Made by a program: the position numbers and the translations under genes. Below, piece by piece: positions 808-4,905 of a DNA stretch of 5,232 nucleotides. The stretch spans positions 1 through 5,232 of the forward strand of contig JBHLRO010000063.1 in the NCBI GenBank assembly GCA_048882505.1, in the 5' to 3' direction. Under the pieces are notes generated by a model. The model saw nothing but the letters and a program-made list of their open reading frames with translations, searched no databases and was not told the origin of the DNA. Source of the stretch: Candidatus Thorarchaeota archaeon. Lineage in GTDB: Archaea > Asgardarchaeota > Heimdallarchaeia > Hodarchaeales > Hodarchaeaceae. How positions within the stretch are numbered: position 1 is the stretch's first letter; each line of letters opens with the position of its first letter.

Positions 808-1149
808 CTATTCAGACCAAACCCAGTTGCAAGCTGTACATTTGTAATAGGTGGTCGTTTCCCATTCCTCTTTTTTGCGATTTTCAGCTTCCCAATACCG
901 GGCTTCATGGTTTGAACAGCGGGGACAGGCAATACGAGTGGTAGGCCTTATATCAAAGTCTACCTGATCCTCAATAACAGTCAATAAATCCTCTTCCGTG
1001 TGCCGAATCTTAGATTTCACTTGGTAGGAATTTTCAGTGAACTGATCTTCAAATTGGGTGTCGCATACCTTGCAATAAAGGATTACCTTACCATCATCTT
1101 TCCTTTGTGGAAGAAGTAAAGAACCACAGTTCTTACAAAAGCTTACCAT
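808..1149 (-). CDS. tfs: Transcription factor S / RpoM (Rpb9-RPA12-RPC11) family double zinc-ribbon protein; atypical paralogue with altered catalytic hairpin
   Basis: 113 aa. N-terminal ribbon FCKNCGSLLLP...LYCKVC. TFS-like linker (KSKIRHTEED). C-terminal ribbon PTTRIACPRCSNHEARYW...YYKCTACNWVWSE. All four CxxC pairs are present. An in-frame upstream stop at 1171-1173 bounds the start at Met 1149. Confidence 0.9.
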   Translation of the reverse strand: MVSFCKNCGSLLLPQRKDDGKVILYCKVCDTQFEDQFTENSYQVKSKIRHTEEDLLTVIEDQVDFDIRPTTRIACPRCSNHEARYWEAENRKKEEWETTTYYKCTACNWVWSE

Positions 1150-1260
1150 TTTGATACTTTCTCGATTTTTTTATCTCGAAGGATTATTCTTAGCGCTGGG
1201 CACTGAAGAGTTGACGAATCGGGTTCATAAGTAATGTTTTAAATTTGGCGAAACGAAATA

Positions 1261-1772: not shown

Positions 1773-3056
1773 ATGGCCCAGAAATCTATTTATGAGCTTG
1801 CAGCAAAACAATTGCTTGCAAAGGAACTTCCAAAGTATTACCCCGACTTTCAATATCATGGAAAGGTCGTTGTGGTTACACCAGAGACTGATCTTGACCA
1901 ACTTACAGGTAAATACCCTTGGTTGAAAACCGAGAGATTGGCGGCAAAACCCGATCAACTCTTTGGAAAAAGAGGTAAAGCCGGATTATTGTTGCTTAAT
2001 GCGGGCTTTAATGAACTAAAAACGTTTCTAGACGAGAAGTTGGGAAAGGAAATAGCGGTCAGCGGAACAACTGGAGTTCTTAATCGTATTCTGGTAGAAC
2101 CTTTTGTTCCTCATGAAAAAGAATTCTACGTTGCTTTCACTTCAGATCAAGATAACGATATAATCCACTTCTCTTTTGAGGGAGGAATATTCGTTGAAGA
2201 GAATTGGGATAAGGTCACTCATGTCCCTATCCCTATTGGGACGGACATCAGCGCGATTAATTTGACCGAAAAGCTGCCAGATCTTGGAGATTTAAGAGAT
2301 GCACTCATTCCGTTTATAAAAGGCCTTCTTCAAGTCTATATAGATCAGGATTTTGCTTTCCTGGAAATAAATCCCTTCGCAGTTACTAAAGATAAAGAAA
2401 TCGTTCCCTTGGATCTCAAAGCCCGTTTGGACGATACTGCGGCCTTTTTACACATGGATTCCTGGGGAAATCCCGACAATCCGATAGAATTCCCACGTGG
2501 ATTTGGGCAGGTGTTATCAAAAGAAGAGGAGTTTATCCGATCGCTAGATGAGCAAACGGGAGCCTCGCTTAAACTTACTATTCTAAATCGAGACGCCCCT
2601 ATTTGGACCATGGTTGCCGGAGGCGGTGCTAGTGTTATATATACGGATACAATAGCCGATCTGGGCTATGCTAGGGATCTTGGAAACTATGGGGAATATT
2701 CGGGCAATCCAAATCGAGAGCATACCGAGCTCTATGCCCAGACATTAATCGATCTCATTACTGAAAAGCCAGATCCTCAAGGAAAACCTAAGATTCTTAT
2801 CGTTGGGGGTGGCATTGCCAACTTTACCGATGTCAAGGCCACCTTCACGGGAATTGTTAGTGCCTTACGAAAGTCTGCAGATAAGCTCAAGAAAGCAAAC
2901 GTGAAGATTTTTGTAAGACGGGGGGGACCAAATGAAAAAGAGGGTCTCAAGCTAATGGAAGCGGTAGGAAAAGAAATCGGAGTCCCTATTGAAATCTATG
3001 ATCGCTATACCCATATGACTCGGGTTGTCCCACTGGGTATAAAGGCAAGAGAATAG
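1773..3056 (+). CDS. aclB: ATP-citrate lyase, ATP-grasp/citrate-binding subunit (AclB in Chlorobium naming; ACLY-A/plant ACLA; equals the N-terminal part of human ACLY)
   Basis: 427 aa. ATP-grasp motifs: KPDQLFGKRGK, EPFVPH, FLEINP, LDLKARLDDTA. Citrate-binding domain motifs: IWTMVAGGGASVIY, NYGEYSGNP, GGGIANFTDV (N350/T352), FVRRGGPN (R383), THMT. These ACL-specific motifs distinguish it from succinyl-CoA synthetase beta. Confidence 0.97.
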   Translation: MAQKSIYELAAKQLLAKELPKYYPDFQYHGKVVVVTPETDLDQLTGKYPWLKTERLAAKPDQLFGKRGKAGLLLLNAGFNELKTFLDEKLGKEIAVSGTTGVLNRILVEPFVPHEKEFYVAFTSDQDNDIIHFSFEGGIFVEENWDKVTHVPIPIGTDISAINLTEKLPDLGDLRDALIPFIKGLLQVYIDQDFAFLEINPFAVTKDKEIVPLDLKARLDDTAAFLHMDSWGNPDNPIEFPRGFGQVLSKEEEFIRSLDEQTGASLKLTILNRDAPIWTMVAGGGASVIYTDTIADLGYARDLGNYGEYSGNPNREHTELYAQTLIDLITEKPDPQGKPKILIVGGGIANFTDVKATFTGIVSALRKSADKLKKANVKIFVRRGGPNEKEGLKLMEAVGKEIGVPIEIYDRYTHMTRVVPLGIKARE

Positions 3057-3069: not shown

Positions 3070-4905
3070 ATGGACAACTATGAATTGTTTACAGAAGATA
3101 CACAAGCAATTGTATACGGTTTTCAAAGAAATGCAATTCAAAGGATGCTGGACTTTGATTTTGTGTGCAAAAGAAAGAAACCTTCAGTCGCGGCAATAAT
3201 CCGCCCTAGTCAAGCAGGCGCGGTAGGTTACCACAAGGTTTTTTGGGGTGGTACAGAAATCGTGATCCCAATTTACCGGCGTCTTTCTCTTGCACTGAAG
3301 AATCACCCTCAGGTAGATGTGATGGTGAATTTCTCTTCGTTTCGATCGGCCTTTCCTACCTCCAAGGAAGCTCTGGAATCGGATACAATCAAAACTGTGA
3401 CTATCATCGCAGAAGGGATTCCCGAACGTCAAAGCAGAGAACTGAAAAAACTTGCGGACGAAAAGGGTAAAATGATCATTGGACCAGCAACAGTCGGAGG
3501 AATGAGAGCTGGCGCTTTCAAGATTGGAAACACAGCTGGTACTATTGAGAACATTGTTTTATCCAAGCTTTACCGTCCAGGAAGTGTGGGATTGGTTTCA
3601 AAAAGCGGTGGTATGAGCAACGAGCTCAATTTTATGATTTCGCAGAATTCCGATGGAATATATGAGGGAATAGCCATAGGAGGAGATCGATATGCAGGAT
3701 CTTCTCTCCTAGATCATTTGATGCGTTATGATGCCAATCCCAAAATTAAAATGAGTGTTTGTCTCGGAGAAGTTGGAGGGACTGGAGAATTAGAGGTTGC
3801 TGAGGCTTTGAAGGATGGCAGAATCAAAAAACCATTGGTAATGTGGTGTATTGGCACAGCAGCAAAGCTCTTACCGTCCGGACTGCAATTTGGCCATGCG
3901 GGCGCTATGGCAGGCACTGATCGGGAGACTGCAGATTACAAGAATAAGGTATTGGCGGAAGCAGGAGCTATTGTACCCCCAACATACGATGAACTAGGTG
4001 CGAAAATTAATGAAACTTTCAAAAAACTACAATCTGAAGGTAAGATTGATCCTGTTGAAGAATTTGAACCTCCAAAATTGCCTATGGATTATGCCCAAGC
4101 ATCTAGATTAGGTATCGTGCGGCGTCCTACTGATGTAGTATGTACAATCAGTGACGAGCGGGGAGATGTTCCGATGTTCTCAGGAGTAGGTTTAGACACA
4201 ATTGTACGTGAGAAAAAATCCATCGGATATGTGATTGGGCTTTTATGGTTAAAGCGTGAACTCCCACAATTCGCTCAGGACTTCATTGAGATGACTGTGA
4301 AGTTAACCTCTGACCATGGGCCCGCAGTCTCGGGAGCTCACAATGCAATCGTAACGGCCCGAGCCGGGAAAGACCTAATGTCATCTCTTGCGACGGGTAT
4401 TCTAGCAATAGGCCCAAGATTCGGTGGCGCAATTGCGGGAGCGGCACGGTACTTTAAGGAAGGACGTGATAAAGAGATGCATCCGATTGAATTTGTAGAT
4501 TATATGAAAAATGTAGTTGGAATCAATATTCCAGGAATCGGGCACCGTATCAAGTCACTTCAAAATCCAGATGTCCGTGTACAGCTACTTAAAGAGTTTG
4601 TGTTCGAAAACTTTGAAAAACATCCCTATCTTGATTTTGCCCTCGAGGTCGAGTTACTAACAACTCAAAAACGTAACAATCTGATTCTCAATGTTGACGG
4701 TTGTATCGGTATAACCTTCCTGGATCTTATGGAAAATCTCGATATGACTCCAGAAGAGAAACAGGATGTAATCGAGAGCGAAGTATTAAACGGACTCTTT
4801 GTACTTGGTCGTTCAATTGGGATGATGGGGCACGTATTCGATCAAAAACGCCAACGAGCAGGGCTTTACAGACAACCGTGGGATGAAATTCTCTTTGCAG
4901 AATAA
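3070..4905 (+). CDS. aclA: ATP-citrate lyase, CoA-binding/phosphohistidine + citryl-CoA lyase subunit (AclA in Chlorobium naming; ACLY-B/plant ACLB)
   Basis: 611 aa. Motifs: QRMLDFDFVC, NFSSFRSA, IIAEGIPE (E115), IIGPATVGG, SKSGGMSNEL, GGDRY, LGEVGG, QFGHAGA (phospho-His H276), PMDY stalk, DHGPAVSGAHN (H416), PGIGHRIKS (H492), LNVDG (D543), GRSIG, DQKR, LYRQPWD (R601). These positions map to human ACLY E599/H760/H900/H975/D1026/R1085 (numbering from memory) with a constant offset of 483-484. Confidence 0.98.
   Translation: MDNYELFTEDTQAIVYGFQRNAIQRMLDFDFVCKRKKPSVAAIIRPSQAGAVGYHKVFWGGTEIVIPIYRRLSLALKNHPQVDVMVNFSSFRSAFPTSKEALESDTIKTVTIIAEGIPERQSRELKKLADEKGKMIIGPATVGGMRAGAFKIGNTAGTIENIVLSKLYRPGSVGLVSKSGGMSNELNFMISQNSDGIYEGIAIGGDRYAGSSLLDHLMRYDANPKIKMSVCLGEVGGTGELEVAEALKDGRIKKPLVMWCIGTAAKLLPSGLQFGHAGAMAGTDRETADYKNKVLAEAGAIVPPTYDELGAKINETFKKLQSEGKIDPVEEFEPPKLPMDYAQASRLGIVRRPTDVVCTISDERGDVPMFSGVGLDTIVREKKSIGYVIGLLWLKRELPQFAQDFIEMTVKLTSDHGPAVSGAHNAIVTARAGKDLMSSLATGILAIGPRFGGAIAGAARYFKEGRDKEMHPIEFVDYMKNVVGINIPGIGHRIKSLQNPDVRVQLLKEFVFENFEKHPYLDFALEVELLTTQKRNNLILNVDGCIGITFLDLMENLDMTPEEKQDVIESEVLNGLFVLGRSIGMMGHVFDQKRQRAGLYRQPWDEILFAE

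Follow-up and report, generated by a model that had tools for sequence, protein, structure and literature searches.

[quoted passage not shown] The locus thus raises the question of whether this protein is the housekeeping TFS of its host, a redundant copy of it, or a factor that does something else to RNA polymerase (RNAP). The window analyzed here is the whole of the contig, designated C63, and the assembly comprises 4.3 Mb in 83 contigs. The features of the gene are listed below.

808..1149, (-) strand: coding sequence of the TFS paralogue (113 amino acids plus a TAG stop at 808-810), above the cut-offs of both PF02150 and PF01096
1063..1137, (-) strand: N-terminal C4 zinc ribbon, C5-x2-C8 ... 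C26-x2-C29 (Pfam, alignment, AF2)
928..1062, (-) strand: linker, residues 30-74, with the conserved motif SYQ..SKI.H..(E/K)D..TVIE..FDIRP
829..927, (-) strand: C-terminal TFIIS-type C4 zinc ribbon (C75, C78, C104, C107) bearing the β-hairpin (Pfam, alignment, AF2)
859..879, (-) strand: hairpin tip R91-K92-K93-E94-E95-W96-E97, read directly from the DNA, the counterpart of the canonical R-S-G/A-D-E
1165..1174, (-) strand: A/T-rich TATA-like box (sequence only), ending 15 nt before the ATG

Overall architecture of the paralogue

Translation of the open reading frame at 808-1149 gives a 113-residue protein with two zinc ribbons. The scores are 31.5 bits for PF02150 (cut-off 25.2) and 29.9 bits for PF01096 (cut-off 21), and the Foldseek matches are chains of C11, Rpb9, A12.2, and TFS4. 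Membership in the fold class of the two-ribbon TFS / RPA12-RPB9-RPC11 superfamily is confirmed. The N-terminal ribbon, whose strands in the AF2 model run from 13 to 16, 22 to 26, and 31 to 33, carries the FCxxCG signature seen in most TFS proteins and in Rpb9, and its four cysteines, C5, C8, C26, and C29, are invariant in the alignment of orthologues. Residues 37-68 of the linker are disordered in the model, as expected of a free linker. Judging from the TFS4-RNAP complex, in which the jaw contact of the linker is seen (PMC8448823), this is probably the part of the protein that would add strands to the RNAP jaw.

The C-terminal ribbon reads C75-P-R-C78 ... YWEAENRKKEEWETTTYYK-C104-T-A-C107, with model strands at 83-90 and 97-104, and the hairpin itself is YWEAENRKKEEWETTTYYKC. 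Between W86 and C104 there are 17 residues, as compared to 16 both in the canonical TFS of the same genome (W-QVQTRSGDEASTTFYR-C) and in PDB 1qyp. In place of the canonical Q-T-R-S/x-A/G-D-E at its canonical length, the paralogue displays E-N-R-K-K-E-E-W-E. An earlier note on this DNA had described the altered hairpin, with its 17 versus 16 residues and its RKKEEW tip, and both the translation and the DNA agree with that description in every detail. In the AF2 model the hairpin loop contains six residues, versus nine in canonical TFS, and the strands pair nearer the tip; little weight is placed on this predicted difference, as the pLDDT of the tip is only about 65.

Upstream of the start codon lies the TATA-like box (ATAAAAAAAT), from which a transcript with a short leader, or with none, might be initiated. 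Many of the orthologues have instead a GGTGA Shine-Dalgarno-like motif together with a TATA-like box about 50 nt upstream.

TFS copies in the genome

The genome holds three TFS-like genes, namely a canonical one, the present paralogue, and a third copy of 154 amino acids on contig C16. The canonical gene is located on contig C18, adjoining the gene for fibrillarin. Its product contains the hairpin YWQVQTRSGDEASTTFYRC (QTRSGDE) and scores 76.7 bits on TIGR01384, the equivalog model for canonical archaeal TFS, which is above the cut-off of 64.75, whereas the paralogue, at 59.4 bits, falls below it. The earlier note had regarded the protein as a paralogue rather than the housekeeping factor and had suggested a search for a separate canonical TFS in the same genome; the copy on C18 is that gene, and the assignment stands.

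There is one gene for Rpo2 and one for Rpo1, with no second copy of either, and therefore all of the TFS copies would have to act on the same RNAP. The N-ribbon and the KIxH...TVIE core of the linker are common to the paralogue and to the canonical TFS of the genus. On the basis of these shared motifs the two proteins would be expected to use the same lobe/jaw docking site, and thus to compete for it.

Several features of the other two copies were also recorded. In the canonical TFS of the genus (L001:1495-1854 (-), L042-L051) the first knuckle of the N-ribbon is C-x-C (FC(D/E)CG) and not C-x-x-C. A C-x-C first knuckle is also present in 8 of 150 representative TFS-like proteins and is, accordingly, not unique to the genus. 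The third copy (L003:1420-1884 (-) on C16) has orthologues of 135-155 amino acids (L074-L089) in essentially all genomes of the genus. The N-ribbon of this copy is of the C4 type, its C-ribbon has one cysteine changed to histidine (C-x-H ... C-x-x-C), and its hairpin, FQGFYQFS(R/S)GDEASRKYW(Y/F)C, keeps the D-E pair but is one residue shorter after the arginine. Its linker is rich in proline (EPPPIP), and its C-terminal tail is basic.

Conservation and distribution

Of the 21 other species in the GTDB genus, 20 carry an orthologue of the paralogue, with identities of 58-97%. The exception is G005, a fragmented genome in which only a match at the level of the canonical protein was found. A collection of 5.8 billion proteins contains 24 related clusters whose names, where given, are Hodarchaeales, Hodarchaeota, or Heimdallarchaeota. 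From the names of its close homologues, the genome is assigned to Hodarchaeales, which belongs to the Heimdall group of Asgard archaea. An exhaustive search of 1.84 billion representatives returned just three proteins at E-values up to 1e-30, and the family is therefore narrow.

Within an alignment of 22 sequences, the hairpin is the best-conserved segment of the family. Four of its residues, R91, K93, W96, and E97, do not vary at all, and position 95 is occupied by an acid in every sequence. All eight cysteines are likewise invariant among the orthologues, and the reading frame is intact. From 19 orthologous coding sequences, 1564 synonymous versus 350 non-synonymous pairwise codon differences were counted in hairpin codons 82-104, as compared to 4748 synonymous versus 4902 non-synonymous differences in the rest of the gene. 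R91 is encoded by all six arginine codons across the orthologues. Purifying selection is centered on the hairpin tip throughout the family, and a sequencing or assembly error is therefore excluded. The rewired hairpin defines a conserved family; recurring as it does in 20 of 21 species and in the 24 clusters, it did not arise by chance or through misassembly.

Neighborhood of the gene

The remaining genes of the window are as follows.

1-663: ABC-2 permease fragment
1773-3056, (+) strand: AclB-like gene of a two-subunit ATP-citrate lyase, with ATP-grasp and citrate-binding domains
3070-4905, (+) strand: AclA-like gene of a two-subunit ATP-citrate lyase, with CoA-ligase and citrate-synthase domains

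These neighbors, the ATP-citrate lyase and the ABC permease, recur only in the relative at 97% identity. Near the other orthologues lie genes for an unknown 350-residue protein, a DUF6125 protein, and a CMP-kinase-like protein. The neighborhoods of the orthologues showed no link to transcription or defense and gave no hint as to function. Neither the Rfam nor the tRNA scan of the window gave a match. PADLOC likewise gave none, PHROGs gave only a zinc-ribbon match at 0.0012, and a scan for sigma-70 promoters and terminators was uninformative.

As regards the arrangement of these neighbors, in most genomes of the genus the gene immediately upstream of the orthologue, and co-oriented with it, encodes the conserved protein of ~350 residues (L021:249-1328 (+), with equivalents in 16 loci), for which Pfam, NCBIfam, PADLOC, and PHROG gave no match. 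The DUF6125 and CMP-kinase-like genes are downstream of, and convergent to, the orthologues. In the window itself, a 620-nt spacer (1150-1772) separates the divergent TFS paralogue and aclB genes, and its only open reading frames (62 and 106 amino acids) recur just in the 97%-identical relative.

A sister paralogue and related tips

A sister paralogue, referred to as A2, is present in eight of 21 genomes of the genus (L034-L041: G009, G012, G011, G021, G002, G015, G007, G019) at 44-55% identity. It is about 115 amino acids in length and more basic overall, and its tip reads R-R-K-x-E-W-E-S. The first acidic position varies (Q/P/E/S/D), whereas E-W-E is fixed. A degraded extra copy of A2 in G009 (L052) has lost the cysteines of its C-ribbon. 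Tips of the same design and length are found in a few other Asgard metagenome-assembled genomes, among them two from a sister family of the same order (L064, L065) and ones labeled Odinarchaeota. The variant Asgard tips include K-V-E-E-F-E, K-G-I-E-Y-E, K-A-E-E-Y-E, R-Y-E-G-E, K-E-D-F-E-E, and T-D-E-Y-D-E; in the related variants an E-[W/F/Y/G]-E tip is retained, and in most of them a lysine or arginine stands a few residues ahead of it.

A maximum-likelihood tree was calculated from 117 columns; its backbone is unresolved and its bootstrap not fully converged. In this tree the paralogue family and A2 form a clade (100/97) that is nested in a group with four Asgard variants (100/84), apart from Rpb9; the eukaryotic sampling consists mostly of metazoan Rpb9, with two plants, one heterolobosean, one RPC10, and no RPA12. 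A tree joining all of the acid-acid-aromatic-acid tips is as likely as the free tree in the AU test (p-AU 0.532), a comparison that includes the hairpin columns and is partly circular.

Other variants were encountered outside of the genus. A sister family in the same order is devoid of the E-W-E-tip paralogue. It contains variant TFS copies (L064 and L065, in G023 and G022) with tips T-D-E-Y-D-E and K-E-D-F-E-E, and copies of 133-135 amino acids (L071, L072) with the tip V-(V/S)-T-R-G-D-E-P-G-K. In other Heimdall families, proteins of ~80-95 amino acids (L090-L093; G038, G026, G031, G024) are devoid of a C-ribbon, and their TFS-type N-ribbon and linker lead into an acidic tail. Proteins like these (P0128, P0170) are among the matches of the exhaustive search. 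They may be binders of the RNAP lobe or jaw, or decoys.

Proposed function

We propose, at about even confidence, that the paralogue is a lineage-specific, secondary-channel competitor of the housekeeping TFS that re-tunes or blocks catalysis by means of its rebuilt tip. By homology, its N-ribbon and linker would dock on the lobe and jaw of RNAP, and its C-ribbon would enter the NTP-entry funnel, or secondary channel. Bound in this manner, it would act on the single RNAP of the cell in competition with the housekeeping TFS. The arginine of the hairpin contacts RNA in TFIIS-type factors, and this residue is kept as R91. In the rebuilt tip, the acids that flank the invariant tryptophan (E95-W96-E97) are preceded by K/R-K. 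From the retained arginine, the two carboxylates, and the longer hairpin with its possibly more regular β-ribbon, we infer that the tip extends to the active site, where it would continue to bind the catalytic metal, albeit with a changed geometry. Possible stacking partners of the invariant tryptophan are a base and residues of the trigger loop or the bridge helix. The paralogue would then not simply duplicate TFS but would be either a modulator in the style of Gfh1/DksA or a cleavage factor whose properties are altered. Families of secondary-channel factors are known to diversify into non-cleaving regulators, as exemplified by TFS4 and Gfh1/DksA (PMC8448823).

Alternative explanations

The strongest alternative, to which we assign about half the weight given to the competitor model and which is thus unlikely but far from negligible, is that the protein is an ordinary and partly redundant cleavage factor in which E94-E95 replace D-E, with a difference only in expression or in fine kinetics. 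Both zinc ribbons are intact, and the TIGR01384 score of 59.4 is barely under the cut-off. In addition, the acidic pair occupies R+3 and R+4 relative to the invariant arginine, as in canonical TFS, a spacing that would be equally compatible with ordinary cleavage stimulation. The replacement of the TFS4 tip by that of TFS1 confers cleavage activity, and thus tip chemistry decides function (PMC5715097). In the paralogue, however, E-A-E-N/D stands in place of Q-x-Q-T, two lysines have been added, and the loop is longer. In A2, moreover, the first acid is freely replaced by Q, P, or S, while W96 and E97, neither of which is found in canonical TFS, are invariant. Jeon et al. (1994) reportedly found even conservative changes of the TFIIS D-E dipeptide to abolish activity.

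Considerably less probable is an allosteric inhibitor of the TFS4 type, the analogy drawn in the earlier note, whereby the lysines would drive binding in the funnel, the clamp would open, and transcription would be shut down, possibly during virus infection. Such a role would have a precedent in an inhibitory TFS paralogue (PMC5715097, PMC8448823), and two basic residues, K/R92 and K93, do lie beside the tip. The hairpin of the paralogue, however, is longer, not shortened, and its acidic residues are invariant. The net charge of the C-ribbon is -1 (family mean -0.6), as opposed to +4 in the canonical copy of the genome and a mean of +2.8 for the canonical proteins of the genus, whereas TFS4 is strongly basic. 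On the TFS4 model NF047723 the paralogue scores 21.7 bits against a cut-off of 120. Furthermore, no PADLOC or PHROG matches support this role, there is no defense-island context, and the gene is near-universal in the genus with promoter-like elements of its own. A TFS4-type mechanism is therefore unlikely, and the analogy is not supported, although inhibition of another kind is possible.

The Rpb9 question

A further alternative, and one that is more doubtful still, holds that the paralogue is Rpb9-like in being a stable RNAP subunit whose C-ribbon remains outside of the pore, and that it may share descent with eukaryotic Rpb9. When the paralogue is compared to the PDB with phmmer, Rpb9 ranks first (3e-14), followed by RPC10 and RPA12, whereas the canonical TFS of the genome finds 1qyp and RPC10 first. 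Rpb9 tops this ranking because the PDB is without a full-length canonical archaeal TFS. Both proteins contain R-[RK]-x-E-E and terminate in W-[ST]-E, and the host lineage, Hodarchaeales, is in keeping with the idea. By the AU test, a constrained tree joining the family and Rpb9 is no worse than the free one (p-AU 0.515; 117 columns), a value that shows only an unresolved backbone.

The broader comparisons point the other way. In the exhaustive profile search, archaeal proteins with QTRSxDE hairpins appear from about 5e-19 down, and Rpb9 first at ~1e-8 (RPC10 at 3e-8), which is more than 100 places below archaeal TFS. By hhalign, the paralogue family scores highest with A2 (284), followed by archaeal TFS (190), the canonical TFS of the genus (177), Rpb9 (103), and the third copy (86). 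By these sequence measures the paralogue is nearer to archaeal TFS than to Rpb9. On the strength of the exhaustive search, the names of the matches, and the hhalign scores, Rpb9 as the nearest relative was set aside as a bias of PDB content. The free tree likewise places the family within the clade of Asgard variants and away from Rpb9. Finally, the tip of the paralogue is far more constrained than that of Rpb9, which argues for a working tip.

The PDB sequence matches of the third TFS-like copy are also almost only to Rpb9 (4e-9), and in the tree this copy (T3_L003) grouped with Rpb9 at 97/82. This grouping was rejected as a probable long-branch attraction, the end branch being 2.2; by hhalign the third copy scores 68 to Rpb9 versus about 100 to TFS.

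In eukaryotes the family is split between a permanently docked subunit of the Rpb9 type and a transient cleavage factor of the TFIIS type. The expansion of TFS in Hodarchaeales, with a canonical protein, the E-W-E paralogue, A2, and a third copy of 140-155 amino acids for one RNAP, might conceivably represent an archaeal stage of this split, with the paralogue as a functional, or even genealogical, counterpart of Rpb9, but we regard this as a long shot. A 2026 review still refers to Rpb9 as the sole eukaryote-exclusive subunit (PMC13257274).

That the gene is an artefact or a decaying pseudogene is scarcely credible, for while its TIGR01384 score is below threshold and one A2 copy in G009 (L052) is degraded, its frame is intact, its eight cysteines are invariant, and it is under strong purifying selection across at least 20 species.

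Comparison with known systems

Secondary-channel factors have repeatedly become regulators, as in the passage from Gre to Gfh1/DksA in bacteria and from TFS1 to TFS4 in Sulfolobales. The genomes of this Hodarchaeales genus hold three to four TFS-like genes per one polymerase. Eukaryotes likewise expanded the family, giving rise to Rpb9, A12.2, C11, and TFIIS. If the tip of the competitor proposed here modulates catalysis, it would offer a new and natural means of probing the active site of archaeal and eukaryotic polymerases, and it would bear on the origin of the eukaryotic division of labor. If the protein simply cleaves, it would be an ordinary lineage-specific duplicate. The earlier note had spoken of an undescribed class. 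For the tip motif this is fair, as no description of the E-W-E tip or of the family was found in the literature searched. It is less so for the multiplication of tfs genes, given that Fouqueau et al. (2017) had already reported that these genes multiplied independently in Heimdall-, Loki-, and Thorarchaea (PMC5715097).

The closest known system is canonical archaeal TFS, as represented by TIGR01384, the C-domain of Thermococcus celer TFS (PDB 1qyp), and Sulfolobus TFS1. The architecture, the length, the linker core, and the invariant hairpin arginine are the same. The paralogue differs, however, in that Q-x-Q-T-R-S-A/G-D-E is replaced by E-A-E-N/D-R-K/R-K-E-E-W-E, the loop is one residue longer, and the C-ribbon is acidic rather than basic. 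It also lies below the equivalog cut-off and coexists with a true canonical copy.

[quoted passage not shown] TFS4 has a shortened hairpin with three lysines (KKK) and without acidic residues, and its strongly basic C-ribbon binds acidic patches at the rim of the funnel, short of the active site (PMC5715097, PMC8448823). By contrast, the Asgard paralogue combines a longer hairpin and invariant glutamates with a C-ribbon net charge of about -1, and two basic residues are positioned beside its arginine. The origins of the two are independent, one being in the Asgard archaea and the other in the Sulfolobales.

Eukaryotic Rpb9, along with RPC10/C11 and RPA12, shares with the paralogue the fold, the length, the FCxxC(G/N)..L.P motif, a stretch resembling R-[RK]-x-E-E, and the W-[ST]-E C-terminus. 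There is no special profile affinity between them (103 versus 190 for archaeal TFS), and the tip of the paralogue is much more conserved.

Bacterial Gfh1 and DksA, with their unrelated coiled-coil fold, are non-homologous and offer only a possible functional analogy. As paralogues or analogues of cleavage factors, they retain acidic residues at their tips, but their effect on RNAP, exerted by way of the secondary channel, is one of modulation or inhibition (cited in PMC8448823).
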